Positions 1,255-19,340 of a DNA stretch of 64,000 bases are shown here, piece by piece. Within the stretch, counting starts at the first letter, position 1; every line of letters starts with the position of its first letter. A program made the position numbers and the translations under genes. This DNA is from a virus (lineage: Duplodnaviria > Caudoviricetes). Below the pieces are notes generated by a model. That model made no database searches and was not told the origin of the DNA. It saw nothing but the letters and a program-made list of their open reading frames with translations. The stretch spans positions 1,564 through 65,563 of the IMG/VR virus record IMGVR_UViG_3300032287_000883, one strand, 5' to 3'.

Positions 1255-1263
1255 CGTATGTCC

Positions 1264-3327: not shown

Positions 3328-3328
3328 T

Positions 3329-3784: not shown

Positions 3785-3791
3785 ATCAACC

Positions 3792-4619
3792 TCAGAATGT
3801 AATTGTTCCGTTGCCAGTGAATGTATATACGTAGTCACTGCCAGCCATTGTAATTGTAGGTGAACCTGTGAATGAAGCTGCTGCTCTGCCGTTTCTAACG
3901 ATGACTATGCCGCTACCGCCGTTACCGCCGTCACCCCCAGCGCCTCCGCCTCCGCCTCCCCCGCCGCCAGTATTTGCAGTTGCTGCACTTGCGTTTGAAT
4001 TGGATGACCCTCCCGCCCCGCCGCCGCCGATACCTCCCGTACCAGCCGTTGCAAAGCCTCCGCCTCCGCCACCAGCGTAATAAACTTGTGAGCCAGTAAT
4101 TGTACTTGGCGCTCCTGAGCCACCATTACCCGGATTTGGATTTGGTGTTATACCTGCGGAACCAGCCCCGCCACCGCCACCGCCACTATATGATGCTCCT
4201 GATCCGCTGCCGCCCGGATTGCCTTGCCCCGTAGTTCCAGTGCCACCAATAGTCCCAGAGTTTACTTGCCCACCACCGCCCGAGCCACCATTCCCACCAG
4301 TTGCAACATTCCCGCCGCCGGTGCTATTTCCGCCTTGACCGCCGCCAATCGAAGTTACGCCAGTAAATACAGAATTTGATCCTGCTGTAGGATTTGTGGT
4401 TGTTGTGCCTGTTCCGCCAGCGCCAACAGTAATGGTGTACGTAGTACCAATCACATAACCAAAGGAGGTAAGCTGAAAACCACCCGCGCCGCCGCCGCCC
4501 CCGCCATCACCACCACCGCCACCACCGCCAGCAACAACTAGCAGGTTAGCAGCAGACGTAGTGTAGGCAAGCGGATTAAACGTCGCCGTGACATAACCAC
4601 CGGGATAACGAAGTCCCAT
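3792..4619 (-). CDS. Glycine-rich tail/fibre protein
   Basis: LVVAGGGGGG, YYAGGGGG, GGSGIVIVR motifs; N-terminal YPGG motif shared with the gene at 1..1254. Confidence 0.8.
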   Translation of the reverse strand: MGLRYPGGYVTATFNPLAYTTSAANLLVVAGGGGGGGDGGGGGGAGGFQLTSFGYVIGTTYTITVGAGGTGTTTTNPTAGSNSVFTGVTSIGGGQGGNSTGGGNVATGGNGGSGGGGQVNSGTIGGTGTTGQGNPGGSGSGASYSGGGGGGAGSAGITPNPNPGNGGSGAPSTITGSQVYYAGGGGGGFATAGTGGIGGGGAGGSSNSNASAATANTGGGGGGGGGAGGDGGNGGSGIVIVRNGRAAASFTGSPTITMAGSDYVYTFTGNGTITF

Positions 4620-4627
4620 GTTAGCCC

Positions 4628-5038
4628 TTACGAGGTGATCTGTTCAAACGTCGCTGTGAATGTCAGCGCACTCGCAGTACCAGAATAAGCAGCAACAGAC
4701 TGATTCTCAGTGATGTACACAGAGTTGGTCTTGTCGATGATAATCAACGTCGCATTTGGCGGCACTGAAATCTGATACGCAGGATACGTAATCACAGTAG
4801 CTGAACCGAACGTACCATTGTTACCAATAGCAATCGTTGCAGTCACAGCACTTGAAGTCGTATTCGACGCAGTGATAGACGTAATACGGTTAACTGTACC
4901 CACCGCTGGTTTTAAGCCAGTAAGAGCAGTCGTGCCGTCATACGTCCAAGATGTCGTGGCAGTAGCTGCCGCCGAAGGGATAACGTAGCCGACGTTTCCG
5001 TAGATGCTGACTACGTTAACAATATTAGGGTTAGCCAT
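4628..5038 (-). CDS. Virion structural protein (tail accessory)
   Basis: Thr/Ala/Val-rich, MANPNIVNV start, in tail cluster. Confidence 0.65.
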   Translation of the reverse strand: MANPNIVNVVSIYGNVGYVIPSAAATATTSWTYDGTTALTGLKPAVGTVNRITSITASNTTSSAVTATIAIGNNGTFGSATVITYPAYQISVPPNATLIIIDKTNSVYITENQSVAAYSGTASALTFTATFEQITS

Positions 5039-5049
5039 TTAATAACTCC

Positions 5050-6015
5050 TTAGAATCCGAAGATCATCGCCATAGCGATACTTTTACCTGTTGAAATACC
5101 ACCAGACGCAGCAGCCCATGTAGGAACACCCGCAGTCAACGTCAAAACATTACCGTTTGTACCCGCTGCTAAAAATGTTGTAGCACCTGAGCCTGTTTGA
5201 TAAGGCACCGAACCGTTTGCACCGCCAGCAATATTAGTTGCTGTAGTAGCCGTTGTTGCAGAACCCGCTGTAGTAGCAGAACCCACTGCCAATGTACTTT
5301 GCGCTACGTACTGAGGAGCCGATGCGCCAGCAGTTAAAACGTAGTTTGTGACACCTAGATTTAGCGTTGTAGTTGCACTTGTACCTGACTGATACACCAA
5401 AGAACCTGCCGCGCCGCCTGTGACGTTCGTTGCTGTAGTAGCTGTACCAACTGTAATGCCTGTCGGGTTAGACCACTGCGGGGCACTGCCCGTAGAAGAC
5501 AACAAGAAACCGTTGGAGCCGATTGAGAGTTTGGTAAGCGTTGTGCCTGAAGCGTAGTAAGTTGTGTCACCCGCTGTAAACGTAGACTGCCCTGTACCAC
5601 CGTTAGCAACAGGAAGAACGCCAGAGACGTTAGCCAGATTAACTGTACCAACCGTTGACTTCAACGCGCCTGTAGTATCAAACGTACCATCGGTTGTCCA
5701 TGTATCACCGACCTGCAAAGTGACTTTGGTTAAAATACGAAGCGTACTAGCGTTGTTGTAGTAGATCGTTATAGTAACGGCGGCTGTATCGCAGTTCTCT
5801 ATGTTGATGCTTTTGATAATACGACGGGTAGAAGCCGCAGGGGCGGCTACTAAAGTAACCGTAGATGCGCCGTTTAGCGCACCATCAGATGCGCCTTCAG
5901 TAAATGTTGCGCCGGTATTGTCTGAATATGCAGTAACAAACCCCGGGTTAGTTGTAGTAGGCGTACCACTCATTACCGCTTGAATGGACTTCGATGTTGA
6001 GTCTAGGATAAGCAT
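5050..6015 (-). CDS. Tail fibre-like structural protein
   Basis: GVLPVANGGTG, ATN(V/I).GGA.GS..YQ repeats, C-terminal GKSIAMAMIFG. Confidence 0.7.
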   Translation of the reverse strand: MLILDSTSKSIQAVMSGTPTTTNPGFVTAYSDNTGATFTEGASDGALNGASTVTLVAAPAASTRRIIKSINIENCDTAAVTITIYYNNASTLRILTKVTLQVGDTWTTDGTFDTTGALKSTVGTVNLANVSGVLPVANGGTGQSTFTAGDTTYYASGTTLTKLSIGSNGFLLSSTGSAPQWSNPTGITVGTATTATNVTGGAAGSLVYQSGTSATTTLNLGVTNYVLTAGASAPQYVAQSTLAVGSATTAGSATTATTATNIAGGANGSVPYQTGSGATTFLAAGTNGNVLTLTAGVPTWAAASGGISTGKSIAMAMIFGF

Positions 6016-6024
6016 GTTTGCCCC

Positions 6025-6372
6025 TTAACTAAAAAACCAAGCATAGGACTCTGCTTGCGGATTTGTTACTGCTTTTCCAGCAGGGTATGTTATGAATACG
6101 TCCTGAGTACCAGTACTAAAATTAACTGTGCTTCCAGAGTTACTAGAAGATAAAACTGTTGTTCTTGTCAGGGTGTTTACACCTGAGTATGTGCCGATAC
6201 CAACTTCCCAATTAACCCCGCCTTGGTCTGCTATGGTGTAGAAGCACGTATCGCTAACTATCAACACTGCGCTAAATGGTTGGAATCCTGTAGCTGCGCC
6301 CAACAACGTAACCGCTCCGGTTCCGGGGGCTGACGCTGTTTCTTTTACGCGATCTGCTTGAACTAACGCCAT
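6025..6372 (-). CDS. Virion structural protein
   Basis: MALVQADRVKET..WEVGIGTY..TLTRTTVLSSSN..DVFITYPA. Confidence 0.7.
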   Translation of the reverse strand: MALVQADRVKETASAPGTGAVTLLGAATGFQPFSAVLIVSDTCFYTIADQGGVNWEVGIGTYSGVNTLTRTTVLSSSNSGSTVNFSTGTQDVFITYPAGKAVTNPQAESYAWFFS

Positions 6373-6382
6373 AGTGGCACCT

Positions 6383-7366
6383 TTAAATCGTATTGATTAA
6401 CACCCAATCGCCTTGCTCAGAAGTATTAATAGGCGTCCAATCTACATTGTACAAGTCACCTACCGAACCCCTAGCCGCTGCTCCTGCCAATGCTACGGAA
6501 ATTACTTTGTTAACACTAGCCACTGCTGCTGCCGCTTGTACCCCAGTAAGTGCAACTGCAAAACCCGGAGCGATGGTTCCAACTGTACCTGCGGCTGCTA
6601 CGCCTGTGACGGCTTTTATTTCCCCTGATGTCGGAGCTACTGTGCCAACATTACCGGTAGCAACTACCCCTGTTACTGAGTTGTTGTTAGTTGACTCCGT
6701 CAACATCGTACCTAAGTTACCGTACGCTACAACACCTGCGCCTTCAGTATAAGAAAGAACTGTACCAGCACTGCCTATAGCTTGGTTACCACTTAAAGCA
6801 GACGCAATAGCAGGTAACACCGTACCTCTAAACCCGCCAGCTTCTACGCCTGTTAATGTTTGGAAGTACGCATTAGAACCCGTAACACTTCCTATATTGC
6901 CTACCGCGTTAACCCCAGTAATACCAAGCGTTGTTGACGTAGTTACAGTACCCGCGTTACCAGAAGCAGTAACTCCACTAATCGCGACAATACTGCCAGC
7001 CAACGTCGTAACCGTACCAACTGTACCTGTTGCAAAAACTCCAGTAGCAGGCAAGTTCGGGCCGCTTGTACCTACAATAGTGCCAGCATAACCAAACGCT
7101 TCGTTATGAAACAGCGACGCAGAGTTCTCAGTAAAGGTACCAACCGTACCCGCACTTCCAGAAGCCGAAACCCCTGCTAAAGCCAGACTTGTAACTTGTG
7201 TAACATTTGCAACCGTACCAGTAGCACTTACCCCTGATAACTCAGCAACAAAGTTTGGGGTTTCATTACCTACAAGACCACTGGCAGAAACCCCTGTCAG
7301 TTCAATTACAACGCCGCCGCTTAACGCGCTATACGGAGCGGCTGAATAGGGGTTAAAGCCGTACAT
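6383..7366 (-). CDS. Repetitive fibre/adaptor structural protein
   Basis: About 19-aa repeats of (L/V)(T/S)GV.A.G.VG(T/S)V. Confidence 0.65.
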   Translation of the reverse strand: MYGFNPYSAAPYSALSGGVVIELTGVSASGLVGNETPNFVAELSGVSATGTVANVTQVTSLALAGVSASGSAGTVGTFTENSASLFHNEAFGYAGTIVGTSGPNLPATGVFATGTVGTVTTLAGSIVAISGVTASGNAGTVTTSTTLGITGVNAVGNIGSVTGSNAYFQTLTGVEAGGFRGTVLPAIASALSGNQAIGSAGTVLSYTEGAGVVAYGNLGTMLTESTNNNSVTGVVATGNVGTVAPTSGEIKAVTGVAAAGTVGTIAPGFAVALTGVQAAAAVASVNKVISVALAGAAARGSVGDLYNVDWTPINTSEQGDWVLINTI

Positions 7367-7372
7367 GGTCTA

Positions 7373-7858
7373 TTAGGTAGTAGCCAAACGCAGCAGAGCA
7401 GTCGAAGTAGTATTAGAAGGCATAGTCAAAGTAAATGTACCTGACGTAACCGTCTGGGCAGTAAACGTGTGGGCGCTCACTGCTTTATTACTTTGGGTGC
7501 TGTTATAAATAAACACGCAATCAAACGACGAGAACGTCACAGGGCTACCAGCAGAACCGTAAACGATACTTGCTGATGGAGTCCAATAAGCCGTACCAGC
7601 CGTAGCTGACGAGTTTGACGATGCAGGAACCGTTCCGTTAGTAACAGTTACACCACCAGCCGTGTAGTTTGCACTGGTTACTTCGTTTGTAGCTGTGTAA
7701 GCCGTGGTCGCTGCGTTGATGGTAGCGGTTGTTAGATATAGCGCCGCTTTAAATGTATCTGCTGTTGTAACAGCGCGAACAGGAGCGGTGCCGAAATTGT
7801 GCGTTGCCGTCATGAGTTCAGCCATGAACGATGTGCACATCGATTGAGTATTTGCCAT
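7373..7858 (-). CDS. Virion structural protein (paralog of 8072..8488)
   Basis: TSF...L...FKAALY..T.Y...NE....YTAGG..IYN..ALLR pattern shared by the two genes. Confidence 0.7.
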   Translation of the reverse strand: MANTQSMCTSFMAELMTATHNFGTAPVRAVTTADTFKAALYLTTATINAATTAYTATNEVTSANYTAGGVTVTNGTVPASSNSSATAGTAYWTPSASIVYGSAGSPVTFSSFDCVFIYNSTQSNKAVSAHTFTAQTVTSGTFTLTMPSNTTSTALLRLATT

Positions 7859-7871
7859 TTTAGTCCTCTAC

Positions 7872-8063
7872 TTAAAAAGATGCGGCAACAGGCACGCCGC
7901 TTACATCGTACTTCTTCAACACCATGTCAACAGAACGATGAACAAGTTCACCGTCCAACCAATATTCCACCCAACGGGTAGTTTCATTTTCTGTGTCAAC
8001 TACACCTTCTTTTTTCTCCAGAAGGGAGTCATCCATTTCGCCTTTTGTTGTTTGAACCAGCAT
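7872..8063 (-). CDS. Small hypothetical protein
   Basis: ORF in operon spacing; TTKG.MD..LLEK..WVEYWLDGELVHRS. Confidence 0.65.
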   Translation of the reverse strand: MLVQTTKGEMDDSLLEKKEGVVDTENETTRWVEYWLDGELVHRSVDMVLKKYDVSGVPVAASF

Positions 8064-8071
8064 GCAATCTC

Positions 8072-8488
8072 CTATGGAAAACGAATTAGTGCGGTTGTTG
8101 CTGAGTTAACAGGCATCTGAATAGTGAAATTAGTCATCGTCTTATCTGAACCAAAATCTAATACCGCTACAGACGCGTTGCTTCTTGTTACATTATATAT
8201 AAGAGCACCTCTTGCGGTAAGCTGCGAATTAGGCCATACCGCGTTAGCAAAATCTACAAACACTATGCCATCCGGTGAGGCGCTAATTGTCACTCCAGTT
8301 AACGCTATGCCACCGGCTGTGTATCCTGTACCTGTAATCTCATTGATTGTTGTGTACACCGTTGTATCTGGGCCAATAGTAGAGAACGCCGTATACAACG
8401 CTATTTTTAACGAATCCGTTGCCAAGTTTTGCCCAGCCTGAATCATCTGCTGTTTGAAACTTGTGGTTAACCCTTGTTGAATAGCCAT
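8072..8488 (-). CDS. Virion structural protein (paralog of 7373..7858)
   Basis: TSFK..LKIALYT..NEITGTGYTAGG..ARGALIYN..VLDFGSDK. Confidence 0.7.
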   Translation of the reverse strand: MAIQQGLTTSFKQQMIQAGQNLATDSLKIALYTAFSTIGPDTTVYTTINEITGTGYTAGGIALTGVTISASPDGIVFVDFANAVWPNSQLTARGALIYNVTRSNASVAVLDFGSDKTMTNFTIQMPVNSATTALIRFP

Positions 8489-9411
8489 TACGGATTAACC
8501 TCAATCTTAGCTTGACCATCCCGATAAGCATCGCCACGCTCAAGTCCTGTACCCAGACGATTAAGCTGACCAAGCGCATCTTTAAATTTACCTTCGTAGT
8601 ACGTCATCATATCTTGCTCGCCCTTCATAAATATGTAGGCTTCAACTAACGCGCCATACAAAAGTGCTGGTGAATAGTTGTCACCTAGCCATGAAGAACC
8701 ATCTGGATTAATCAGCGTTTGGACGGGAACCGAGAAACCCGAACCCGCACCAAGAATTGTCGTACTAGCCGTCAATGAATCCGCAACTGTATAGAACGAA
8801 CCACCGCTACGCAAAGTCACTGCCGTAATTGAACCGCCCGAGACAATAATGTCTGCTGACGCACCAGAACCTGTACCACCTGTTAACGGCACACGATAGT
8901 AGCTGCCATTGGTATACCCTGATCCGCCAACAATACTACCCAAAAGACGAATAATGCCTTGGACAATTGATACGGGGTAGTAGTAATAGTGCAATTCAAT
9001 ACTGTACTGAGAATCAGGGGTAGGAGCCATCATAAAACTTAACTCGTTAGTGGCTCCCCTGTTTAATACTTCTGGGCCAAACAAAGCGTAATACTTAGGA
9101 ATACCTGTGTCTGTCGGGCTAGGGTACGCAGCCCTTAAGAAATTAACATCTTTGTTTAGCAGGTATTCATAGCTGCCAGTTGCATCAATCACTGCCATTG
9201 AAAAGACTGCTAAGAAATCGGTAGGGCAACTAAGATAAGGGCTGTTAGGCTGAGAAGTACCAGTGACGTTTCTGCGCAGTGGCGGTATCTGAACGGTGTT
9301 GTATATCCGCTCTTCTGCCTGAGTAACAAAGACAGGGATATTTGCTACGAACGTCTGTTCATAGTTTTGGGTGTAATCTTGTATCGTCTGCCAGAGTTCT
9401 GCGTAGTTCAT
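8488..9411 (-). CDS. Head-tail adaptor / tail tubular-type protein with a Gly-rich internal segment
   Basis: MNYAEL..I.DY..F..QAEERI..PTPD..Y..EL.YY..WL..LLYGALVEAY; context. Confidence 0.6.
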   Translation of the reverse strand: MNYAELWQTIQDYTQNYEQTFVANIPVFVTQAEERIYNTVQIPPLRRNVTGTSQPNSPYLSCPTDFLAVFSMAVIDATGSYEYLLNKDVNFLRAAYPSPTDTGIPKYYALFGPEVLNRGATNELSFMMAPTPDSQYSIELHYYYYPVSIVQGIIRLLGSIVGGSGYTNGSYYRVPLTGGTGSGASADIIVSGGSITAVTLRSGGSFYTVADSLTASTTILGAGSGFSVPVQTLINPDGSSWLGDNYSPALLYGALVEAYIFMKGEQDMMTYYEGKFKDALGQLNRLGTGLERGDAYRDGQAKIEVNP

Positions 9412-9440
9412 TGTAAAGTTATTCCTAACCCACTGTTAAC

Positions 9441-9704
9441 TTAAGCCATAGGTCCACGACACATTGTGCCTTTGGTTGCAGCACCAGCACCGCGCATCTT
9501 GATACCGCTGGTCTTAGGCTCGCTAGTGTTACCTTTACTAATGCCACCAACAGACATGTTTGCTTTATTCAATACATCGGTGCCGGTGGTGTACTTAGAG
9601 TCGGCTTGAACGCTAGACGCTTTGCCCTTCATGTCATGCGGGGCAGCATACACAGCAGCTTGGCCTACTTCTTTACCTTTAACCTTCTGTGAAAACTTAG
9701 CCAT
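9441..9704 (-). CDS. Small basic protein
   Basis: Lys/Gly-rich; KTSGIKMRGAGAATKG..RGPMA C-terminus. Confidence 0.7.
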   Translation of the reverse strand: MAKFSQKVKGKEVGQAAVYAAPHDMKGKASSVQADSKYTTGTDVLNKANMSVGGISKGNTSEPKTSGIKMRGAGAATKGTMCRGPMA

Positions 9705-9856
9705 TATCGACCTCTCTGGTTGTTAGCACGCGCCATGTTGCGACCAACTTTACGCATAGCTTCGCCTGTGACGCCGCCTTTTTTCATGCCATGCATTTTC
9801 TTTTCGTGCTTACCTACTTCTTGGTCAGCGATTTTCTTAACTTCTTTCTTGTCCAT
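9704..9856 (-). CDS. Small basic protein (50 aa, below the ORF-track cutoff)
   Basis: MDKKEVKKIADQEVGKHEKKMHGMKKGGVTGEAMRKVGRNMARANNQRGR; RBS AGGAG; stop overlaps the next ATG. Confidence 0.75.
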   Translation of the reverse strand: MDKKEVKKIADQEVGKHEKKMHGMKKGGVTGEAMRKVGRNMARANNQRGR

Positions 9857-9864
9857 ATCTACTC

Positions 9865-10287
9865 CTATGTGATTGTCACACTACCCACCACGGGTTTTGA
9901 CGTTAAATAGTTGGGTGTCAATCCCGCATCGTTTGCACTTGCTCCGCCAACCGGATTCCAGCCCCATTGAAACACCCTACTACCACCTTCAGGGTAACCA
10001 GTTTCATTTATTGATGTACCGGTATTATTGGATGTTTGTAAGCCACTTTGCCCAGACTGGTAATAACTTAAATCTTTACGAGGTTCCCGAACAGCTTGTG
10101 GATCATTAACTGGATACAAACCCAAAGATAATTGCGGCTGATCCGGTTCCCAACAATTCTTACAAACTTTAATCGATACCTGTTTGGTTTTAATCGTCAG
10201 TTTGCGTAATTCTTTCAACATGTAGCGAAAACCACAGCGGTCGCACTCCGCAATACTATTCTTACCAGATGCGTACTTACTTCCCAT
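9865..10287 (-). CDS. Zn-ribbon protein
   Basis: CDRCG...CKNC, PDQPQL, DPQAVREPR. Confidence 0.7.
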   Translation of the reverse strand: MGSKYASGKNSIAECDRCGFRYMLKELRKLTIKTKQVSIKVCKNCWEPDQPQLSLGLYPVNDPQAVREPRKDLSYYQSGQSGLQTSNNTGTSINETGYPEGGSRVFQWGWNPVGGASANDAGLTPNYLTSKPVVGSVTIT

Positions 10288-10290
10288 ACA

Positions 10291-11034
10291 TCACCTGTAA
10301 AACAACGTACGGGGCACAAAACGATCCGGTGCCTTTTCGCGATCCTCCGCAGATGCAAAATCCCAAGCCTCGTCGTATTGCGCCTTCAATATAGCCATAC
10401 GAGTAGGATCAACCCCTGACAACTTTATGGATAGCATATACGCGAGTCCGGCAACCAGAGCGTTTTGGAAACGGAACGGAATTCCTTCAACGTTCACACC
10501 TGTACCAGCATCTACTATACGGCGCATACGCCAGTACACAAAATAATAGTAAGGGGTTTGTACTGTTCCCTGATCTGGTGAAGGCCACACATTAATCTGT
10601 GGATATTGCGGGGTTGCACCAGCCAAATCTGTAGTCTGCCCAGAACGACGATTTACCCATACTTGAATAGGTCGTCCCTGAGTTAATTTGTTTGGAATGG
10701 TAGAGTAAGTTGAAACGCTAATTCGACTAATGTTTATATCGTTCTGATTAGCAGTTTCTCCGGGATAAGTACGAATAACATGCTCAAGAAGGTCCACGGT
10801 ATCATTAGGTAGATCATAAGTAATTGTCCCTTGCACTAGTGGAATTTGACCTTGTTCAATAGTCCAAAGGTTAATCCCACGGTTTGCCCACTCAGTAATT
10901 AAAAAGTTCAAACTTCTGCGTGCTGTACGGAAATCATAGCCAGAACGTAACTCGCGCCCACAACGCTCAAACGCCTCCTCCATCAACTCATTAAGAGTCG
11001 GATTAAACGCTGTTGTGCTTGTGGTTACCGCCAT
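10291..11034 (-). CDS. Head-to-tail connector/adaptor protein
   Basis: EEAFERCG..ARRSLN....W.NRG.NLW..IP.RF..ALVAGLAY; position after head genes. Confidence 0.65.
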   Translation of the reverse strand: MAVTTSTTAFNPTLNELMEEAFERCGRELRSGYDFRTARRSLNFLITEWANRGINLWTIEQGQIPLVQGTITYDLPNDTVDLLEHVIRTYPGETANQNDINISRISVSTYSTIPNKLTQGRPIQVWVNRRSGQTTDLAGATPQYPQINVWPSPDQGTVQTPYYYFVYWRMRRIVDAGTGVNVEGIPFRFQNALVAGLAYMLSIKLSGVDPTRMAILKAQYDEAWDFASAEDREKAPDRFVPRTLFYR

Positions 11035-11288
11035 TACTTCCTCGCCATTCTCATGTTATCGACCAAGTTTGGGTAAGGTCTACCTGCAGCTTTTGCAGCA
11101 GACTTTGCCGCTGACTTCTTAGCAGAGCTTAACTTCTTTGGTTTACCTAACTTCTTTGGACGTGGCTTATCCCATACCTCACCACCCTTTGCATACTGAG
11201 TGAAGTCAGTATCATCCCGACGAGCTTTATTTTTCCCGTCGGGCATTTTGGACGGGCTAATATCTCCCATACCGCGTGACGCCATCAT
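11034..11288 (-). CDS. Small Lys-rich protein
   Basis: YAKGG motif; AGRPYPNLVDNM. Confidence 0.7.
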   Translation of the reverse strand: MMASRGMGDISPSKMPDGKNKARRDDTDFTQYAKGGEVWDKPRPKKLGKPKKLSSAKKSAAKSAAKAAGRPYPNLVDNMRMARK

Positions 11289-11725
11289 TAGCAATACCCG
11301 CCTTTGCTCATCTTCTTGTTGCCAGCCATGACAACCATTTTGCCTTTGGTTTTGCCTTTAGTAGCAACACCATCACGGCTAGGAGCCGCAGTCTTAACAG
11401 CGCCCATTGAGGTCATGCCGCCATTAGCCATCTTTTTCATAGGCTTGTCGCCCGCTTTTTTCTTCATCATTGCCATAAAACCTGCATTCTTTTTCATTGC
11501 CATGCCTCCTTTTTTCATACCCATAGAATCTGAAATTGCTTCTTTCTTCTTTTCATCAAGTTCTTCTGACTGTGTTTTTTTCTTTAATGATATTGGCATG
11601 GTAGTTCCTTTAGGTTTAGTAAACTCTTTACCCACACTCTGCGGCACACCGGCCTTCTTAGCAAACGCAGGGTTGTGGGCTACCGCCTGCATAAACCGTT
11701 CTTGCTTTTTAGATACAGTAGGCAT
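11288..11725 (-). CDS. Lys/Met-rich small protein with repeated M-x-x-GG motifs
   Basis: MPTVSKKQERFMQAVAHNPAFAKKAGVPQSVGKEF; MKKGG, MANGG, MSKGG. Confidence 0.75.
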   Translation of the reverse strand: MPTVSKKQERFMQAVAHNPAFAKKAGVPQSVGKEFTKPKGTTMPISLKKKTQSEELDEKKKEAISDSMGMKKGGMAMKKNAGFMAMMKKKAGDKPMKKMANGGMTSMGAVKTAAPSRDGVATKGKTKGKMVVMAGNKKMSKGGYC

Positions 11726-11726
11726 A

Positions 11727-11915
11727 TTAGACCTTTATGATCCAACCTTTGCCCATGACAAACCCAACCGCCAAAATACCAATAACAATTAGAAATTTGT
11801 CCACGACAGTTTTGCCTACCTTTTTATAAAACTCAGAAGATAGTTCTTCTAGCGCAATCTTTGCCGCTTCTTTGGCGATTAGTCTTTCGCGATCTGTTAG
11901 TTCAATATCAGACAT
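11727..11915 (-). CDS. Small membrane protein
   Basis: C-terminal hydrophobic helix FLIVIGILAVGFVMG. Confidence 0.65.
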   Translation of the reverse strand: MSDIELTDRERLIAKEAAKIALEELSSEFYKKVGKTVVDKFLIVIGILAVGFVMGKGWIIKV

Positions 11916-11917
11916 GA

Positions 11918-12172
11918 TTAACACTTCCACGCTCTCAATGATTTATTAATACGGCTATTCGGATCGTTCGCGGTTTTGGGTGAAGTGAGCTTCTTTTTCA
12001 TCCCTTTCATACGCGCACAGAAGGAGTCCCGTCTTGAACCGCCTTCCGGTTGGGGGGCTTTTAACCCCGGCTTCCCCGGATTGGCTTTGTTGTAAGAGGC
12101 TCGGCCTTTGGCGTTTAGACCGCCCTTCTCGGACTTTCCTTCTTTCCTCTGCCATGCTGGGGTCTTAGCCAT
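11918..12172 (-). CDS. Small basic phage protein (DUF6321-like)
   Basis: AWQRKEGK..GGLNAKGRASY..RRDSFCARMKG..SRINKSLRAWKC. Confidence 0.75.
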   Translation of the reverse strand: MAKTPAWQRKEGKSEKGGLNAKGRASYNKANPGKPGLKAPQPEGGSRRDSFCARMKGMKKKLTSPKTANDPNSRINKSLRAWKC

Positions 12173-12446
12173 AAAACACCGTTACTTTTGCCGATGCTGG
12201 TAGCGTTACATGTACATCCGTTGTAAACAAAATACCTTCACCGGGGATTGGCAAACCAATAGGTTGTGTACCGGTTCCAATATTAAAGCGCAGTCGAATA
12301 GTGCCAGAAGCACCACCATCCCGAAAAATAATGTCCCCGGCTGTTCCGCCAGAAATGCATTGATAGCCTTTTAAGCGAGTGCGCTCAGACACTATAGTGC
12401 CTGTAGCCTCTATATGTGCCGATTTAACGTCATATTGCATCGCCAT
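12165..12446 (-). CDS. Small beta-rich virion protein
   Basis: MQYDVKS..IPGEGILF..VTVFYG. Confidence 0.7.
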   Translation of the reverse strand: MAMQYDVKSAHIEATGTIVSERTRLKGYQCISGGTAGDIIFRDGGASGTIRLRFNIGTGTQPIGLPIPGEGILFTTDVHVTLPASAKVTVFYG

Positions 12447-12459
12447 GATGCCTCCCTAA

Positions 12460-12963
12460 TTAGTTTTGAGTCGAAGTAGGGTTAGCGTTGCCGTTAGAGT
12501 CACGAACAATGTATTCAACCGTAACAGTAATCGTGCCAGCAGTAGCATCAGCCGTAGCTGCGGTAAAGGTGCCGTAAACAAGCGCATCAGTTGTACCGAT
12601 GCTGTCGTAAAGACCTGAAGTAGCTGCTGCGATGGTAGCTGGAGAAGTTTGAACTGCCGAAGTACCGGTGTTAACCGAAGCCATGTACAAGTTAGCTGTA
12701 CCGCTGCTACCGATAGTAACGCCGCAGTTAGTCGCGCCGGTCAAAGCTACGTTAACTTCAAGACCAAAACGAACGATCTTAGCGCCAGCAGGGAGCACAA
12801 ACATCAGTTGCGCTGTAGGGCTTGCCAAAATGGCAGAAGTGGGGGCTGTGTAGGTCTGGGCAACGATAGTTGCGCCCATATTACGAATGGTACCGGCAGT
12901 AGTGCCAGTGGTGTTCTTAACGGTGCCCAAGAGCCAAGGGCCAAGGTGAGTAGCGAAACCCAT
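12460..12963 (-). CDS. Virion structural protein (possible head decoration)
   Basis: Thr/Ala-rich, LPAGAKI motif, first gene after the capsid gene. Confidence 0.7.
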   Translation of the reverse strand: MGFATHLGPWLLGTVKNTTGTTAGTIRNMGATIVAQTYTAPTSAILASPTAQLMFVLPAGAKIVRFGLEVNVALTGATNCGVTIGSSGTANLYMASVNTGTSAVQTSPATIAAATSGLYDSIGTTDALVYGTFTAATADATAGTITVTVEYIVRDSNGNANPTSTQN

Positions 12964-12975
12964 AATAAATTGTCC

Positions 12976-13045
12976 TCACATGCGAGTTAAGTGCGTCGAT
13001 TTGCATGTAACAGGCCGGGAGCCATTCAACGCACCGGTTTCCCGG
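12976..13045 (-). ncRNA. Candidate structured RNA: two hairpins with 10-bp loop-loop complementarity
   Basis: P1 CCGGGA/UCCCGG; P2 UUACAUGC/GCAUGUGA; loops GGUGCGUUGA and UCGACGCACU are complementary. Confidence 0.65.
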
Positions 13046-13072
13046 AATACTGCTTTTATAGCATATAAAACT

Positions 13073-13102
13073 AAAAAAGGGGAGCGTAAGCCCCCCCTTT
13101 TT
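13073..13102 (-). terminator. Rho-independent terminator after the major capsid gene
   Basis: Minus strand AAAAAGGGGGGGC-TTAC-GCTCCCC-TTTTTT. Confidence 0.8.
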
Positions 13103-13103
13103 A

Positions 13104-14012
13104 TTAAGCGCCCTGCGAGCCGTACATGCCCAATGGGTCAGACCAACCAAACGAATAACGCTCACGAGACTTGTAACGTACGTTACCAGTATCAAAATCG
13201 CCGTCCATTGATTGAGCCAAAGGCGAACGAATAAAGTGCTTCATGCCGTTTGGAACGTCAGTGGTCAGGAACCATGCGTTTGTATCGGTCAAGAAGTGGT
13301 TAATCGTATAGCCTTCAGGGATCGAACCATTGTTCTTCAATGCGTTGATGTCGTTATCGTTAGTGCCGACGCGGAGTTCGGTTTCTAACAAACGAGTTGC
13401 AACGAACTGGAGAGGTGGTGGAACAATCAGCTTACGTGGTTTAGCAGCGATCAACAGGCCACGTTCATCCGTCCAAGCAGCAATCTGAATAACAGCGTTT
13501 TCCAACGATGTTTCATTCAAATCAGTAGGAGTTGAAGGGATGTTGCTGTTGGTACCACCGTTTACTAGAGGATGCGAAGCTGAGAACAAAGCCACACCAT
13601 CACCACCGGGGTAGGATGCTGAGAAGCCATTGTTGATAACAGAAGCAGCTTTAACTTGTTTTGTATACGCCATAGCACGAGCCAAGCCTTTGGTATAACG
13701 AGCCGACAAAGAGTCGTACAAGTTATCTTCGATTGCCTCTTCTGTTAAGGAGAAGCCCAAAGCAATGGTTTCGTGGTTGTAGCGAGCAGTCCAAGTTTCC
13801 TGCGCGTTGTCATAAGCAATTGCGCTACCCTCGTTTTTAACAGGGGCGGCACTAAAGCCAGACAGCTTGGTTTCCTCTTCGAACGAACGCTCGGAAGTCT
13901 CTGTTTCATAGATTTCTTTGTGCTCTTCGCCGTAACGAGCATACTCCAAACCGAACAAAGCGTTCAGGCCGGGGAGCAGTTCTTTCAATAGTTGTGCGCG
14001 TGAAATAGCCAT
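13104..14012 (-). CDS. Major capsid protein
   Basis: MAISRAQLLKEL.PGLNALFG.EY; LGFS.TEEA.EDNLY; C-terminal RYK.RERYSFGWSDP; followed by a terminator. Confidence 0.9.
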   Translation of the reverse strand: MAISRAQLLKELLPGLNALFGLEYARYGEEHKEIYETETSERSFEEETKLSGFSAAPVKNEGSAIAYDNAQETWTARYNHETIALGFSLTEEAIEDNLYDSLSARYTKGLARAMAYTKQVKAASVINNGFSASYPGGDGVALFSASHPLVNGGTNSNIPSTPTDLNETSLENAVIQIAAWTDERGLLIAAKPRKLIVPPPLQFVATRLLETELRVGTNDNDINALKNNGSIPEGYTINHFLTDTNAWFLTTDVPNGMKHFIRSPLAQSMDGDFDTGNVRYKSRERYSFGWSDPLGMYGSQGA

Positions 14013-14022
14013 GTCTTACTCC

Positions 14023-14850
14023 TTAAGCACCAGTGGCAGAATAGTAGCCATGCAGACTTTGGTTCAACTTAACCAAAACTTCTGGGTACTGGGTGAATAC
14101 GATTGTTGAGCTTGCAACAAATGCGGTTGCAGGAGGCTGATTCAACACAACAGAAGTTGCGCCAGCAGCCGCCGCTGTATCAACAAATGAACCTGAAGCA
14201 ATGATCTGACCATTAGCTGCAATTGAAGCAACGTCTGTTCCGACAGGAAGTGCGAAAGGCAACGCTGAAACAGTGATTGTGTTGGTAGAGATACTTGCGT
14301 ATGTTGCACTACCTAAACTAACAGCGGTATCAGGAACAACGCCAATTACACGTAGTGGCAGAGTTGTGGTTACTGGGGTGTCAACAGGAGCCAAAACAGC
14401 ATTTGCTGAATTGCCAGTGTTAGTGTTACCAGTGTTGTTAATAGCGCTGACGTTGCAACCAACGATTGCATTTGAGGCAGAGGCCACAACCGTGCCAGAA
14501 GAACAAACAACAGCTTTAAACACTGCGTCTGGATCATCTGATACGTACGCTTCACAGTCACCAGCCAAAGTGCCGCCGGGCCAGTATTGAGCGAACTGCT
14601 TTTGCTTAGTTACTGGGTTGGTGTATGTGCAGCCCAAGAAAATACCAACGGTTTGGTTCAGAGTTGTGCCAGTAGTTACTGAAGCACGCTCTAAACGACC
14701 ACGAGATAGAACAACAAAATCGCCATAGAAAATGTCGGTTGCATAACCGTAAATGATGGGGTACATGCGGGTAGAACCTGCAAATACTTGACCACCAATC
14801 AAATTCACTGGCTGTAGGCCGTAAGGGGCCGATACGACAGGATAAGCCAT
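14023..14850 (-). CDS. Capsid-associated (cement/decoration) protein
   Basis: APYGL.PV, IF.GD.V, GIFLGC.YT.P, V.DDPD..F; lies directly before the MCP. Confidence 0.65.
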   Translation of the reverse strand: MAYPVVSAPYGLQPVNLIGGQVFAGSTRMYPIIYGYATDIFYGDFVVLSRGRLERASVTTGTTLNQTVGIFLGCTYTNPVTKQKQFAQYWPGGTLAGDCEAYVSDDPDAVFKAVVCSSGTVVASASNAIVGCNVSAINNTGNTNTGNSANAVLAPVDTPVTTTLPLRVIGVVPDTAVSLGSATYASISTNTITVSALPFALPVGTDVASIAANGQIIASGSFVDTAAAAGATSVVLNQPPATAFVASSTIVFTQYPEVLVKLNQSLHGYYSATGA

Positions 14851-14869
14851 AATTTGCTCCAAAAATTAG

Positions 14870-15319
14870 TTATTTACCTTTACCAAAGGATGTCGAAGAT
14901 TTTCGCTCATTAAAGAGTGGCATCCTCGGATCGTTTTGTCGCATAAGGTTGTTATCTACAGACTCAATCTGCCCTTCGGACTGCTTCTGGTAGTACGAAT
15001 TACGCTGTGATACCAATTCCTCTGGGGACTTACAGAGTAACAACCCACCAACCTCGATGTTGTCCTTAAAGCGACTATTCGGGTCGATTAACAGTTGAAA
15101 TTTTGGCTGTTCTTCAATCCTGACTGGCTCCCATCCCTCTCGCAATTTGGCGGAAAGGTTACGTGGGTCAGCGTTGTTCAGGGTTGAAACACGAATCCAT
15201 CTGTACGCGAAACCGGGTTGCTTGTCTGGTTCAGGGAGAAGCTCAGGTGGTGTCCACTGCTTAGGACGTTCCTGCACGGCACGAGTTTGTAGTTCACGAC
15301 TAAGTTTGTTTTCAGCCAT
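14870..15319 (-). CDS. Conserved head-module protein
   Basis: W.PP.LLP.P, YRWIR, REGWEPV, GGLLLCK. Confidence 0.7.
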   Translation of the reverse strand: MAENKLSRELQTRAVQERPKQWTPPELLPEPDKQPGFAYRWIRVSTLNNADPRNLSAKLREGWEPVRIEEQPKFQLLIDPNSRFKDNIEVGGLLLCKSPEELVSQRNSYYQKQSEGQIESVDNNLMRQNDPRMPLFNERKSSTSFGKGK

Positions 15320-16268
15320 TGTTGGCCTCCATTTTCATAAGTTCACGGGCGTACTGTTCTGGGCTAAGTCCCAGACGTTTAGCGATGCTCAACTGCGATT
15401 GCTTAAGCACGATTTTTTTGGAACCAGTGCTACGGGTCGCAGGAGCGACTACCGTGGATGGTCTATCTGTGCGTCCAGCAGGTTTATTTCCCGCTTCAGA
15501 CGTTTTATCTTGGAAGTAGTCCGGGAAGCGTTGACGCATGGTGCCATCAATCTTCTGCCAATACTCGTCGGTGGACGTGTAGGTTTGACCGTGCTGTTTG
15601 ACTAGTTTTTGGTGTAGACCAAGTGCTAGACTAGTCATCTCCTCGTCTTGACCGAACCATGTATTGCGCTCTTGCCACGCAACAGCCCGTGGGTCAGGAC
15701 GAGCCACTTGGGCTTCTGACTGGGGTTGTACCTCATTTTCGTTATATTGTAAAGAGGGAACGAATTCTTTTGCTTTCTGCAATTTATAGTTTGCATCGTT
15801 CAACTTGCGTTGCGCTTCTAGCAATCTTTCAGAATCACCATCTTCGTACGCAGATTTATATGCCTTTTCAGCAACATTTAACTCCAGTTCGGCGGCACTC
15901 TTATATGTATCTAGGTAAGTGCGCTCACCTTCGCTGAGTCTAGTTTTGAGATTCTTGTTTTCTTCTAAGATTCTCTTGGCAAGGTCTTCCGCAGCTTGAC
16001 GCTCTCGTAGGGCTTGGTCTTTCTCCCGACGCTCGTCATGCCATACCTTCTTCATTTGCTTTAGACGAGTTTTAACTTTCTCGGAGTAATCCTCCAACTC
16101 GTCTTGGTCTAGTTCTTGAACTATCTCCTTGGGGAGGGGTTCACGATTACGATCTTCTGGTGGGGTATCGTCCTCGATTTCAAAATCAAAGTCGTCTTTA
16201 GCTGCTTCCGCTTTCCCACCTGATTTAAGTTCTTGCTCATCAGGGAATTCAAACTCTTTCATTTCCAT
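15312..16268 (-). CDS. Capsid scaffolding protein
   Basis: Acidic N-terminus, coiled coil, W..RN.WFG, C-terminal AKRLGLSPEQYA; between portal and MCP. Confidence 0.7.
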   Translation of the reverse strand: MEMKEFEFPDEQELKSGGKAEAAKDDFDFEIEDDTPPEDRNREPLPKEIVQELDQDELEDYSEKVKTRLKQMKKVWHDERREKDQALRERQAAEDLAKRILEENKNLKTRLSEGERTYLDTYKSAAELELNVAEKAYKSAYEDGDSERLLEAQRKLNDANYKLQKAKEFVPSLQYNENEVQPQSEAQVARPDPRAVAWQERNTWFGQDEEMTSLALGLHQKLVKQHGQTYTSTDEYWQKIDGTMRQRFPDYFQDKTSEAGNKPAGRTDRPSTVVAPATRSTGSKKIVLKQSQLSIAKRLGLSPEQYARELMKMEANNG

Positions 16269-16277
16269 ACCACCTCC

Positions 16278-16670
16278 TTATGCGCGGCTAATGCCACGAG
16301 GGTCTTGGACAACTGCGTCAACAGTGTCTTCGTTAATTATGCGAAACTCTTTACCGTGGATTTTTAAACGCGATCCACTATTAGGACGAGTAACAATAAA
16401 GTCCCCCGGCTTACACCACGGGCCAGTTGGATATCGTTCCTTGTCTGTATAGCAGTCGGGACCTAACGCCACGACAAAAAATACCGTTGCTAACACTTCT
16501 TCATAGTGCATAGTAGAACCGGCTTTTGCTAAACCGTTTTCGTACTTGTCATCAATTTCAGGAATAGCAACCAGAATTTTGTACCCACTAGGTGCAGGTA
16601 GTTGTCTGGCTTTTTCTTCCGCTGTTTGTGGTACTTCACCGTCTTCCGTTGCGATTACTATGTCAGTCAT
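16278..16670 (-). CDS. Co-chaperonin GroES-like protein
   Basis: P.GYKILV..VVALGPD..CKPGDFIV..G..FRIINED.V.AVV matches the Cpn10 pattern; likely start MTDIV. Confidence 0.75.
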   Translation of the reverse strand: MTDIVIATEDGEVPQTAEEKARQLPAPSGYKILVAIPEIDDKYENGLAKAGSTMHYEEVLATVFFVVALGPDCYTDKERYPTGPWCKPGDFIVTRPNSGSRLKIHGKEFRIINEDTVDAVVQDPRGISRA

Positions 16671-16860
16671 CGTCGTTGCGCTCCATTTGGTCTGCAAGGT
16701 CTAATATGAAACCTTCTGCGATGGATAGACCCCGAATCTCCCCGCATATTGCACGATACTCTGTGTAATCCTTTGCAGTGCCGTCACTCACAGCGTGAGC
16801 TAACTGCGCCTGTTTTTCATTAATTCTGTCTCTAATAATTGTCAGAGTTTTGTCCATCAT
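16663..16860 (-). CDS. Small head-module protein
   Basis: DY.EYR.ICGEIRGL; coupled to the portal gene. Confidence 0.7.
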   Translation of the reverse strand: MMDKTLTIIRDRINEKQAQLAHAVSDGTAKDYTEYRAICGEIRGLSIAEGFILDLADQMERNDDD

Positions 16861-19340
16861 TTACCTTTTGTCGGTTTTTCTGGCTGTGGTTTGTTAGCTT
16901 GCTCACGTTGATACTGCATTTGGTCACGTTCTTTTGCAGTTTGTGCACCTATACGAATACCTTCTAGGCGTTGTTTAGCGTCCAATTCCGCTTTGTCTTT
17001 GGCTGTTTTAGCGCCCAACTGTGCGCCAGCAATTTCTTTCTGCGATGCGATGCGCTCTCTTTCAACTTCGATTTGCTTAACTTTAGTAACGGCATCCACT
17101 GAAAGTTTCTGCTTCTTAAGGTCAAGCTCACCCTGTTTAATCTCCAATTCTTTCTGTTGCATCTGAACAATCGGGTCTTGGGCCGTTTGTTGTGCTTGTT
17201 GTTGCGCAGCTTCAGTTTGATTTTTCTGCAGTAACTTAGCCGCTGCCATAGCCATCATGCTAGCGATTTGGTTCTCTACATCTTGTGGGATAGTTTCATC
17301 ATCTTTGTTTTGTGGCAGTGGTACACCAACCATCTCTTCGATTTGCTTGCGATACTCAAACGCAACGTGCTCGTTTATATGCGCCAGCATTGCAGCCATC
17401 AGTTGCTGTGCTTGAGGGTTTTGCCCAATAATTGCCGCAATCTTTGGGTCTTGCATCGCAAACATATGCACTTGGATATGCGCTTGGTGATCCTGATACG
17501 CAAACGCTTTGACTGGTTTCATGTTCAACACAGCCATGTTCTCTGCTACAGGGTCTTTCGGTTTCTGATCTTCGGCGCTTGGTATTAGCTTGCCGATGTT
17601 CTTAATACCTAAGACTTCCAACATCTGACGGTTCAACTCAACCATGTCGTAGATTTGTGGCGATGCTTGCGCCATCTGCATCACAGCTTGGTACTGGACA
17701 ACTTTCTGCGACATAGTTGCCGCGTTAGGGTCTGATACTGGGATGACATCTACGTTTGCATAGTCTTGCTGGCGTGCGCGACGTGGGCCTTCTTCTGGCT
17801 CGTAGTTGTATTCCGTAGGAGCGTAAGCAGCGATGATGTTCTTTAAGAGTTTAAACTCTTGTTTCATCGCAAAGTGGATGCGTGCTTGTACTGCGCTCAT
17901 CACTTTTAACTGCCGCTCAAGTAGCGCCAGAGTTGTGCCTACTGGTGCTTGAGCAGACATATCGCTAACTTGTAAGTCAGCAGCAGAAGCAAAGCGCCTT
18001 CCCTCGTCTACTATCTGATCCATCAAGCCTTTTAATACTTGGCTCGGTTCCTTGTATGGTAGGGGGAGTATGTTATCTCGTATGGTGCCAGACGCTACAT
18101 CGACATCTCGCCACTCTCCCGGAGAGATAGGCGTGTCATCACCCTTAGTGCGCATGCCTTTGGTTTTTAAACCACCGGGTAGATTAGATAGCGTACCTGC
18201 GTCTACAAGTTGGCGAAGGATAGAAGTACCACTCTTAGCGTATGCACCGATTAAGTGGATCAAGCCAAAGTAGTAGAAACCAAAGCCGGGGATATAGCCA
18301 TAGTGCACAAAGTGAGTACGCTTCTGATATGTCTTATCGTCAGGTTCCCAATTACGGCGAATAGCCAGAATATTTTTAGTGCCCTTCTCTATAGTGACGA
18401 TATAAGGAAGCGCGATACCATCCTCATGCTCGTAACCCGGCAGGTCTAACTCAACCTGCATCTCCAAGAGCTTGAAGCGATCATCTGCAGTAGCACGAAA
18501 GCCCATCTTCTCGGCTATCTTTTTCTCTACATCATCTAGTGCATTAACTGGATCGCCCAAGTCAATGTCACGATAGAAGCCTGCAACCATCAACTTCTTC
18601 AGGTCGTTCTCAGATTTACGCATCACATGAGTAACGCGTTCTGCGGTCTGCAAATCTTCAGAGCCATACGGAACAATAACGTCCTCGGCTGGCACAAAGA
18701 TAGATGCTTGACGTTCTCTATTTGGATCGTAGTACACCTTCTTGAACGCATTACCTGAAAGTCCCAAGCCCCACAACATACGCTCATGCTCACTACGATA
18801 TTCAGTCATCACTTCCGTGAGCTGATAGTTCATATCAGCTTGGACTCGTTCAGCCGCTTCTTTCTTTTTTGGAGTTTCTTTGCCAATGATTTGCGTTTTA
18901 ACCGGACCAGAAGCCGGGAAAGTCGCCATGATTGTTTCGGATTGGAATTTAACCAGTGCTTCAGATAACAACGGATGGTATACGCCACAAGCACCCTCCC
19001 ACGGTTCGCTACGTTCTTCGAGCTTCATGCCTAACAACTCAAGACCGTCCACGTACGTTTGCATCCAGTCTTTGCGACTAGCTACGTCATCATCATAATC
19101 AGAGAGAAGCTCGGCGGCTAAACCCTGCAATGCATCTTCACTGATCTCTTCAGCAAGGTTATCGTTAAACTCATCATCTTCTTCTTTGCCCGGCTCTATC
19201 TCAATCTCAAGATCGCCCGTGCGCATGGTTACGCTTTCTGGGTCTTCAATCTCAATCTCTAACTCCGGTTCTGCTCCACCCTGCATACCCATAGGGTCTA
19301 AGCCCATCGGAGCTTGGTTTAGTGCTTTATCAATAGCCAT
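16857..19340 (-). CDS. Portal protein
   Basis: 827 aa after terL; GNAFKKVYYD, GFY.FGLIHLIG, LRQLVDAGTLSNLP; Gln-rich coiled-coil C-terminus. Confidence 0.9.
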   Translation of the reverse strand: MAIDKALNQAPMGLDPMGMQGGAEPELEIEIEDPESVTMRTGDLEIEIEPGKEEDDEFNDNLAEEISEDALQGLAAELLSDYDDDVASRKDWMQTYVDGLELLGMKLEERSEPWEGACGVYHPLLSEALVKFQSETIMATFPASGPVKTQIIGKETPKKKEAAERVQADMNYQLTEVMTEYRSEHERMLWGLGLSGNAFKKVYYDPNRERQASIFVPAEDVIVPYGSEDLQTAERVTHVMRKSENDLKKLMVAGFYRDIDLGDPVNALDDVEKKIAEKMGFRATADDRFKLLEMQVELDLPGYEHEDGIALPYIVTIEKGTKNILAIRRNWEPDDKTYQKRTHFVHYGYIPGFGFYYFGLIHLIGAYAKSGTSILRQLVDAGTLSNLPGGLKTKGMRTKGDDTPISPGEWRDVDVASGTIRDNILPLPYKEPSQVLKGLMDQIVDEGRRFASAADLQVSDMSAQAPVGTTLALLERQLKVMSAVQARIHFAMKQEFKLLKNIIAAYAPTEYNYEPEEGPRRARQQDYANVDVIPVSDPNAATMSQKVVQYQAVMQMAQASPQIYDMVELNRQMLEVLGIKNIGKLIPSAEDQKPKDPVAENMAVLNMKPVKAFAYQDHQAHIQVHMFAMQDPKIAAIIGQNPQAQQLMAAMLAHINEHVAFEYRKQIEEMVGVPLPQNKDDETIPQDVENQIASMMAMAAAKLLQKNQTEAAQQQAQQTAQDPIVQMQQKELEIKQGELDLKKQKLSVDAVTKVKQIEVERERIASQKEIAGAQLGAKTAKDKAELDAKQRLEGIRIGAQTAKERDQMQYQREQANKPQPEKPTKGK

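Follow-up and report, generated by a model that had tools for sequence, protein, structure and literature searches.

A doubly pseudoknotted RNA leader conserved upstream of a putative capsid cement gene in freshwater phages

The locus and the protein encoded downstream

The window, i.e. the whole stretch of DNA analyzed here, comprises 64 kb of a 65.6-kb phage record from IMG/VR that is rated complete by CheckV. Its minus strand carries a structural module in which genes for a terminase, a portal protein and the major capsid protein are followed by an intrinsic terminator, the strongest terminator-like site within positions 1 to 17000, and by a gene for a protein of 167 aa (Table 1). The element described here is located between this terminator and the 167-aa gene, and about 12 kb of structural genes on the same strand follow downstream of it. 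The original prediction had placed the terminator of the capsid gene, an extended -10-like TGCTATAAA box and an overlap between the Shine-Dalgarno (SD) sequence GAGGA and one of two proposed hairpins at this locus, and each of these features was found at its place. Elsewhere in the window, on the minus strand (45234-52865), an ORF of 2543 aa matches, with its C-terminal part, a PHROG annotated as DarB-like antirestriction (E 1.5e-47) and large proteins of unknown function; its product may be a giant protein carried by the virion.

Table 1. Features of the locus and strands of the leader helices (positions in the window).
Feature	Position	Strand	Remarks
Major capsid protein gene, 302 aa	13104..14012	-	phrog_371 major head protein, E 1e-20; Pfam Phage_capsid_4, E 2.3e-13
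Intrinsic terminator after the capsid gene	13072..13103	-	14-pair stem, 4-nt loop, T run
Extended -10-like box TGCTATAAA	13055..13063	-	predicted transcript start a few nt before P1
P1, 5' strand (a)	13040..13045	-	CCGGG, plus A13040 in the window phage
b, CCGG	13034..13037	-	alternative partner of a in place of c; CCGG-GAAA-CCGG hairpin; in the RNAfold MFE structure
Loop-loop helix H3, 5' strand	13026..13035	-	within the P1 loop
Clamp helix, d (GG)	13022..13023	-	weak in the window, 2 bp; 3-4 bp in relatives
P1, 3' strand (c)	13015..13020	-	U + CCCGG; inside the loop of the clamp helix
Clamp helix, d' (CC)	13013..13014	-	immediately 3' of c
P2, 5' strand	13003..13010	-	UUACAUGC
Loop-loop helix H3, 3' strand	12990..12999	-	within the P2 loop
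P2, 3' strand	12976..12983	-	GCAUGUGA; final two bases are SD bases 1-2
Shine-Dalgarno sequence GAGGA	12973..12977	-	overlaps the P2 3' strand
Linked gene, 167-aa putative capsid cement/decoration protein	12460..12963	-	assigned by model match and place in the head module

The 167-aa protein yielded no match in Pfam or PHROG. An AlphaFold2 model based on an alignment of 50 sequences is all-beta (pLDDT 79.6), and its best match in the PDB is a capsid chain of the cyanophage Pam1 (7eel_H, E 2.5e-5, TM 0.46/0.54). Further best matches are capsid entries of the H. pylori phages KHP30/KHP40 (7dn2 and 7dou, the latter being titled cement protein), and the capsid of Ralstonia phage GP4 (8h89) ranks eighth with an E-value of 1.4e-2, amid non-phage jellyrolls such as plant-virus coats and endospore appendages. 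Because of these structural matches and the place of the gene in the head module, a role in capsid cementing or decoration is the best reading for this protein, which would be a jellyroll most similar to the cement proteins of phage capsids, with a moderate fit.

A search for homologs of the 167-aa protein returned 3288 sequences at E <= 0.001. In a peptide-pattern scan of IMG/VR at least 599 stretches were matched, of which at least 588 encode a relative of the protein, and 80 loci were kept; two further scans with distant homologs gave 51 loci and then two loci, both of which were already among the 51. Extraction of the 90 nt upstream together with the ATG resulted in 86 distinct sequences. 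Three loci were dropped for missing upstream sequence (L086 with 46 nt, L116 with 8 nt, and L079, in which the N-terminus is absent) and L090 is truncated. After omission of L115, in which the element lies further upstream, 85 distinct leaders entered a plain MAFFT alignment without structural input (A1).

Pairing and covariation of the leader helices

All pairings named in the original prediction are present in the window. Read on the minus strand, CCGGGA pairs with UCCCGG in helix P1, UUACAUGC pairs with GCAUGUGA in helix P2, and the two loops are joined by a helix of GGUGCGUUGA with UCGACGCACU, here called H3, which comprises 10 bp including two G-U pairs. Reading of the related leaders additionally brought up an unreported fourth helix, a 3-bp clamp (d:d') around the 3' strand of P1, which is separated from d by a single spare base and adjoins d' directly. 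The earlier observation is therewith confirmed and extended, i.e. it was correct and understated: the folded leader RNA of about 70 nt (13045-12976, minus strand) contains four helices, which together would form two interleaved pseudoknots.

For the single sequence from the window, none of 2000 mononucleotide shuffles of the 81 nt reproduced the kissing topology at minimum helix lengths of 6, 8, and 10 bp, and 38 of 2000 did so at the laxer lengths of 5, 5, and 8 bp. The nested folding energy of the 81 nt is unexceptional (-22.8 kcal/mol, z = -0.73, with 48 of 200 shuffles folding equally well), a score which does not discriminate because pseudoknots are outside the energy model. RNAfold prefers H3 as a plain nested stem next to the local CCGG-GAAA-CCGG hairpin. 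The separate helix energies in the window are -7.0 (P1), -6.5 (a:b), -12.4 (H3), and -7.8 kcal/mol (P2), and the nested alternative, consisting of the a:b hairpin and H3, is about equal in stability to the summed helices of the original prediction.

The decisive evidence is comparative, in that compensatory changes among the 85 distinct homologous leaders from IMG/VR were found in every helix and indicate that each of them forms. For H3 and the clamp together, 95.2% of 1107 cells in A1 are paired and double changes occur in 14 of 14 pairs; none of 500 shuffles reached any of the five measures applied, and slid controls were paired at 25-38%. Within H3, all ten pairs change on both sides, and 42 distinct strand combinations occur among the 85 leaders. 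The clamp is paired in 99.6% of cells, with its middle pair being U-A in 44, A-U in 37, C-G in three, and G-C in one of the leaders.

Plain MAFFT (A1 and A2) was unable to align the 5' strand of P1 or P2 between subfamilies of leaders. Therefore, these two helices were examined by an anchored complement search, by foreign-partner controls and by a covariance model of P1 and P2. The search was anchored on well-aligned columns and took the best complement, a procedure that favors pairing, and it found a perfect 5-bp P1 in 85 of 85 leaders. Eight Watson-Crick variants of the a/c strands were present, namely CCGGG/CCCGG (47 leaders), CCGAG/CTCGG (13), CCAAG/CTTGG (12), CCTAG/CTAGG (5), CCGGA/TCCGG (3), CTGGG/CCCAG (3), CTAGG/CCTAG (1), and CCATG/CATGG (1). 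When only Watson-Crick pairs were admitted, the own c strand matched in 85 of 85 cases and a foreign c strand in none of 4658; a G-U-tolerant form of this control, in which 1734 of 4658 foreign partners matched, was uninformative and had been replaced by the Watson-Crick form. For P2, which occurs in 22 distinct strand combinations, at least five uninterrupted Watson-Crick pairs were found in 82 of 85 own regions (96.5%), as compared to 22.5% of 5384 foreign combinations reaching 5 bp, a noisy control in which related classes are still included.

Two covariance models were built, one of H3 and the clamp from A1 (R1) and one of P1 and P2 from 20 near-identical seeds with a mean column identity of 93% (R2). 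R2 aligned 67 matches, 60 of them distinct and mostly belonging to the subfamily of the window (sub1), with only three leaders of the second subfamily (sub2) being found. In this alignment, which was fitted to P1 and P2 and not to H3 or the clamp, the 24 pairs of all four helices are 99.4% paired and 21 of them show double changes, a count that refers to 60 distinct, mostly sub1 rows, of which L091, L092, and L118 are poorly aligned in P2. None of 500 shuffles scored as high, and slid controls of the 60 rows were paired at 28-40%. All six modelled pairs of P2 change on both sides. By comparison of sequences, each helix of the element is maintained in hundreds of freshwater phages, the counted set being the 85 distinct leaders.

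G-U pairs are frequent in the leaders (e.g., GU 43 and UG 13 or 9 in H3 columns of A1) and every model match is located on the gene's own strand. This argues that the structure belongs to the sense-strand RNA and not to the DNA. Covariation as such is blind to whether the helices coexist, and also to whether a pairing is formed within one molecule or between two.

The conserved helix lengths are 5 bp for P1, 3 bp for the clamp, 8-10 bp for H3, and 4-8 bp for P2. The clamp closes a hairpin whose loop is the 3' strand of P1, and this strand is continuous with the 3' strand of the clamp. Since the one leads directly into the other, P1 should be able to stack on the clamp; the single base that joins the 5' strand of the clamp to the far end of P1 would then make a short deep-groove crossing, a known feature of H-type pseudoknots and of kissing loops with full pairing. 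With H3 bridging the loops of P1 and P2, all four helices would be able to coexist.

The a:b alternative 5' hairpin, which can take the place of P1, comprises 4 or more Watson-Crick bp in 55 of the 85 leaders and is absent in about 30. It is limited to the subfamily of the window, the other subfamily being without it, and has a paired fraction of 95.4% in alignment A7, where double changes occur in 11 cells of two pairs. Unpaired positions are weakly conserved and only few A or AC positions recur, namely an A after H3, an AC after the clamp, an A before the 3' strand of H3, and an A/C-rich last loop segment. This scarcity of conserved unpaired bases fits an element that is based on shape.

Placement of the leader relative to a promoter-like box, the ribosome binding site, and the gene

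In the window, R1 gave one match (12961-13056, minus strand, 55.6 bits). Across 90 sources it gave 88 matches, 86 of which are located directly 5' of the gene (with L090 cut by the contig end), the remaining ones being a match about 90 nt upstream of the gene in L115 and a weak match in L050 (E 0.83). Counted by source, 87 include the gene's upstream region, and in 86 of them the R1 match immediately precedes the gene, L115 being the one left over. Matches were also obtained in five of five further loci from prokaryote assemblies (genome_contigs), and each of five complete related genomes contains exactly one. Judged by these matches, the element is linked exclusively to the 167-aa gene and is present in a single copy per genome. 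Assignment of a host was tried with five MAG contigs that carry relatives and was rejected, since the binning of phage contigs is not evidence of a host.

The element had been described as lying downstream of the major capsid gene. This is true for the window but not as a constant neighborhood, as only 58 of the 85 leaders have the C-terminus of the capsid protein encoded in the 400 nt before them; the constant neighbor is the downstream gene for the putative cement protein. Since the linkage to the 167-aa gene is constant and the upstream gene is variable, the unit of promoter, leader, and gene appears to stay together while its neighbor changes. In six loci without a capsid gene upstream (L050, L052, L072, L121, L122, and L128), another conserved ORF ends just before the promoter box, its C-terminal peptide, as read by eye, being of the type ...VITQEENLKKSN.... 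In another locus, L004, the cement protein is 93% identical to that of the window, and the two leaders belong to different subfamilies with every helix sequence differing. Therefore, the leaders recombine or evolve much faster than the gene.

The tie of the RNA to one gene family, which holds down to 38% protein identity and with any upstream gene, speaks in favor of an autogenous translational operator, in which the folded leader would be bound by free cement protein and translation of this protein would thereby be blocked. Uptake of the protein into capsids would lift the block, so that synthesis tracks assembly, comparable to T4 gp32 and ssDNA or to ribosomal proteins and rRNA. Such an operator would also account for a fold that is more elaborate than a stabilizer needs and that abuts the SD, and precedents exist in the pseudoknots of T4 gene 32 and rpsO, as described in PMC3014915. 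However, the protein is not basic (5 K+R versus 6 D+E, counted by hand), has no RNA-binding signature and no Pfam match, and leaders of different subfamilies precede near-identical proteins, as seen for L004, so that any recognition would have to be of shape only. We regard this operator as the main rival explanation and as an unlikely one.

Upstream of P1, a TG(n)TAnnnn box ending 6-10 nt before the helix is present in 80 of 85 leaders as compared to 374 of 4250 shuffles, and the other five leaders have no -10-like box at that distance. A strict TGnTAnnnT regular expression, by which the box was seen in only 24 of 85 leaders, had been given up for this looser pattern with its shuffle control. 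A TTGACA-like hexamer is found at proper spacing in many loci. From these signals, a transcript start no more than a few bases away from P1 is predicted. In L100 and L106-L109 an extra GC-rich hairpin (CGGGC-AUA-GCCCG) is inserted between the -10-like box and P1, which therefore is not always terminal. Contigs from four RNA-library runs cover both genes and the 3' part of the leader (12971-13031), with none over 13032-13092; since such contigs cannot reveal start, strand, or true transcription, nothing was inferred from them.

In many relatives (L010-L075 and others), the terminator of the capsid gene and the promoter of the leader overlap about 20-60 nt upstream of the element, and in these overlapping loci a TTGTGC that falls in the loop and 3' stem of the terminator precedes the TATATT box by 17 nt. 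In 36 of the 85 leaders, a GC hairpin followed by a T run is found among the 90 nt upstream. In L100 (1313-1348), an Rfam match to abiF RNA with 37.7 bits (gathering 37) lies over the terminator hairpin of the capsid gene and is probably a false positive on this terminator.

Two hairpins directly downstream of a promoter-like box, followed by about 12 kb of structural genes on the same strand, are reminiscent of the put element of phage HK022, which causes processive antitermination. A comparable element acting on RNA polymerase at the level of transcription might serve the long structural operon. Nevertheless, this explanation is very improbable, since the leader always keeps a distance of 6-16 nt to the AUG and overlaps the SD, for which a put-like element has no need, since downstream terminator-like sites are only weak (25 found versus 16.3 expected), and since no Rfam match was obtained.

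In the 85 leaders, 6-16 nt separate the 3' end of P2 from the AUG, and the SD is part of P2 or abuts it. P2 includes the whole SD in 15 leaders, at least half of it in 24, a part in 36, and none in 10. Thus, 75 of the 85 have SD bases within P2, many of them, including the window, only 1-2 nt. In the subfamily of the window P2 stops at the SD, and in the second subfamily the 3' strand of P2 is the SD itself (CCUC/GAGG). The original prediction had offered a cis translational switch as a first possible function. What is borne out is a structured RNA on the minus strand, within the leader of the gene at 12460..12963 and with P2 in contact with the SD, for which a cis role in the expression of this gene is the best reading; a switch is conjectural, and only the subfamily of the window has an alternative 5' hairpin.

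The leader might also be a riboswitch-like sensor, or it might be targeted by another factor of phage or host origin, for example a late activator by which P2 is opened. Either way, it would set the time of translation on a transcript whose promoter is available to host RNA polymerase at every stage. The compact pseudoknotted fold beside the SD is typical of translational riboswitches, the fully paired SD of sub2 (15 of 85 leaders) calls for an opener, and the alternative 5' hairpin in the window's subfamily excludes P1. Yet the unpaired positions, among which few A or AC recur, are too poorly conserved to resemble ligand pockets, a virion gene would be an unusual riboswitch target, and about 30 of the 85 leaders are without the alternative hairpin. 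All in all, it is quite improbable that the leader works as a sensor of this kind.

In L115 (1261-1503) the arrangement differs. The element (1330-1400) is followed by an ORF of 14 codons (ATG at 1410) and by a hairpin and T run resembling a terminator (about 1453-1483), and the cement homolog starts after this hairpin with an ATG at 1501 and an SD of its own. This layout is either attenuator-like or a recombination scar, and it is the only case in which the element could end as a small separate transcript.

As a second possible function, a discrete RNA had been proposed that multimerizes via its loops like the pRNA of phi29; a self-cleaving ribozyme may be considered alongside it. The complementarity of the loops could indeed act between molecules, since covariation cannot separate cis from trans, L115 has its short ORF and terminator between element and cement gene, and the topology recalls the pistol ribozyme minus P3. 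These proposals can nonetheless hardly be maintained. Reading of the sequences showed no terminator between element and ORF in 89 of 90 carriers (the 85 leaders, L090, and L133-L137), so that the element leads straight into SD and ORF in all carriers but L115, ending 6-16 nt before the AUG. Moreover, no Rfam ribozyme or pRNA match was obtained (E <= 10 for the region in the window, E <= 1 for 14 loci), and there is no set of invariant unpaired bases as a ribozyme would require.

Relation to known RNA elements and proposed role

None of the families of Rfam 15 matches the element. In the window region 12000-14000, a search at E <= 10 yielded only noise driven by terminators, with Termite-leu as the best match (21.4 bits, gathering 51), and a search of 14 diverse loci at E <= 1 yielded nothing on the element. 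Guanidine-II (mini-ykkC) riboswitches consist of two tandem hairpins before the SD whose loops pair mutually, with conserved ACGR tetraloops that form a 2-bp contact. Unlike these, the loops of the element comprise about 19 nt and are variable in sequence, its loop-loop helix of 8-10 bp is freely varying, and it has no Rfam match. The pRNA of phi29 is likewise a phage RNA with two mutually complementary loops. It is a separate transcript with loops pairing between molecules to form a ring on the portal, whereas the element is an mRNA leader joined to SD and ORF, is present in one copy before the cement gene, and does not match in Rfam.

The pseudoknot of rpsO, the E. coli gene for S15, is in equilibrium with hairpin forms. 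It is comparable to the element as an operator pseudoknot for the translation of a structural component (PMC3014915), but rpsO is a cellular gene with an operator bound by an RNA-binding ribosomal protein, and there is no sequence or Rfam relation between the two. The leader of T4-type gene 32 is similar in that a 5' pseudoknot on a phage mRNA for an abundant protein acts on downstream translation, as is proposed for the element; according to PMC3014915, this pseudoknot is simple, with two stems, lies 67 nt ahead of the AUG, and precedes an A+U-rich tract without structure that covers the ribosome binding site. In contrast to this, the element has four helices and two interleaved pseudoknots, no A+U tract, and a fold which itself reaches the SD. 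In the pistol ribozyme, as in the element, the loop of a 5' hairpin pairs with the inner part of a 3' stem to give a pseudoknot. The ribozyme is described with three stems and a pseudoknot, with a P3, and with 10 highly conserved nucleotides (PMC4604425), and the element has neither P3 nor such a conserved set of 10 nucleotides, and no Rfam match.

Intergenic regions of IMG/VR have been mined before, resulting in 8495 novel covarying motifs, 879 of which are located within 25 nt upstream of genes with known domains (Fremin et al., 2023; PMC10690425). The main text of that study names no motif before a cement or decoration gene, and an element as abundant and as strongly covarying as this one may well be among its unnamed DNAVirus_N entries. 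The literature searches, which took in the main text of PMC10690425, gave no RNA element described before a cement or decoration gene. The element is a well-supported RNA family that is new with respect to Rfam, of a known functional kind and of unusual topology.

On balance, it is probable that the element is a cis-acting, doubly pseudoknotted 5' leader which sets mRNA stability and translation initiation of the cement gene. Transcription would start from a host-type promoter a few bases before P1, and P1 would use the first bases of the transcript. The knotted 5' end might shield the 5' terminus of the mRNA from 5'-end-dependent decay. P2, braced by H3, would lie within the 30S footprint, so that initiation is proposed to require the opening of P2. 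In this way the fold would determine, and perhaps time, the amount of cement protein that results from a strong promoter of the gene's own, uncoupled from the capsid gene; we infer effects on decay and on translation alike. A point against this reading is that occlusion of the SD is not uniform among the 85 leaders, with none in 10 of them. Furthermore, since a simple 5' hairpin is enough for mRNA stabilization, the four conserved helices hint at a more specific partner. It is conceivable, if rather doubtful, that the leader is a sensor in a wider sense, either an assembly-feedback operator acting via free cement protein or a new class of ligand or factor switch, and that its knot also buries the 5' end in the manner of nuclease-resistant viral RNAs, of which it would be a counterpart in phages of bacteria.

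The leader would represent a new family of structured RNA with unusually clean comparative support, in which four helices and two interleaved pseudoknots are built within about 70 nt. The linked protein is encoded by at least 588 stretches of IMG/VR, and this wide distribution makes the element a good target for probing and structure determination. Together with its promoter and ribosome binding site it forms a compact, self-contained cassette that recombines between contexts and may serve as an expression part. It also offers a testable case for the question of why a phage builds an elaborate fold where a hairpin would seem to be enough. Within the literature searched, no earlier RNA element has been linked to a gene for capsid cement or decoration; this one points to a post-transcriptional control of virion stoichiometry that is separate from the capsid gene.
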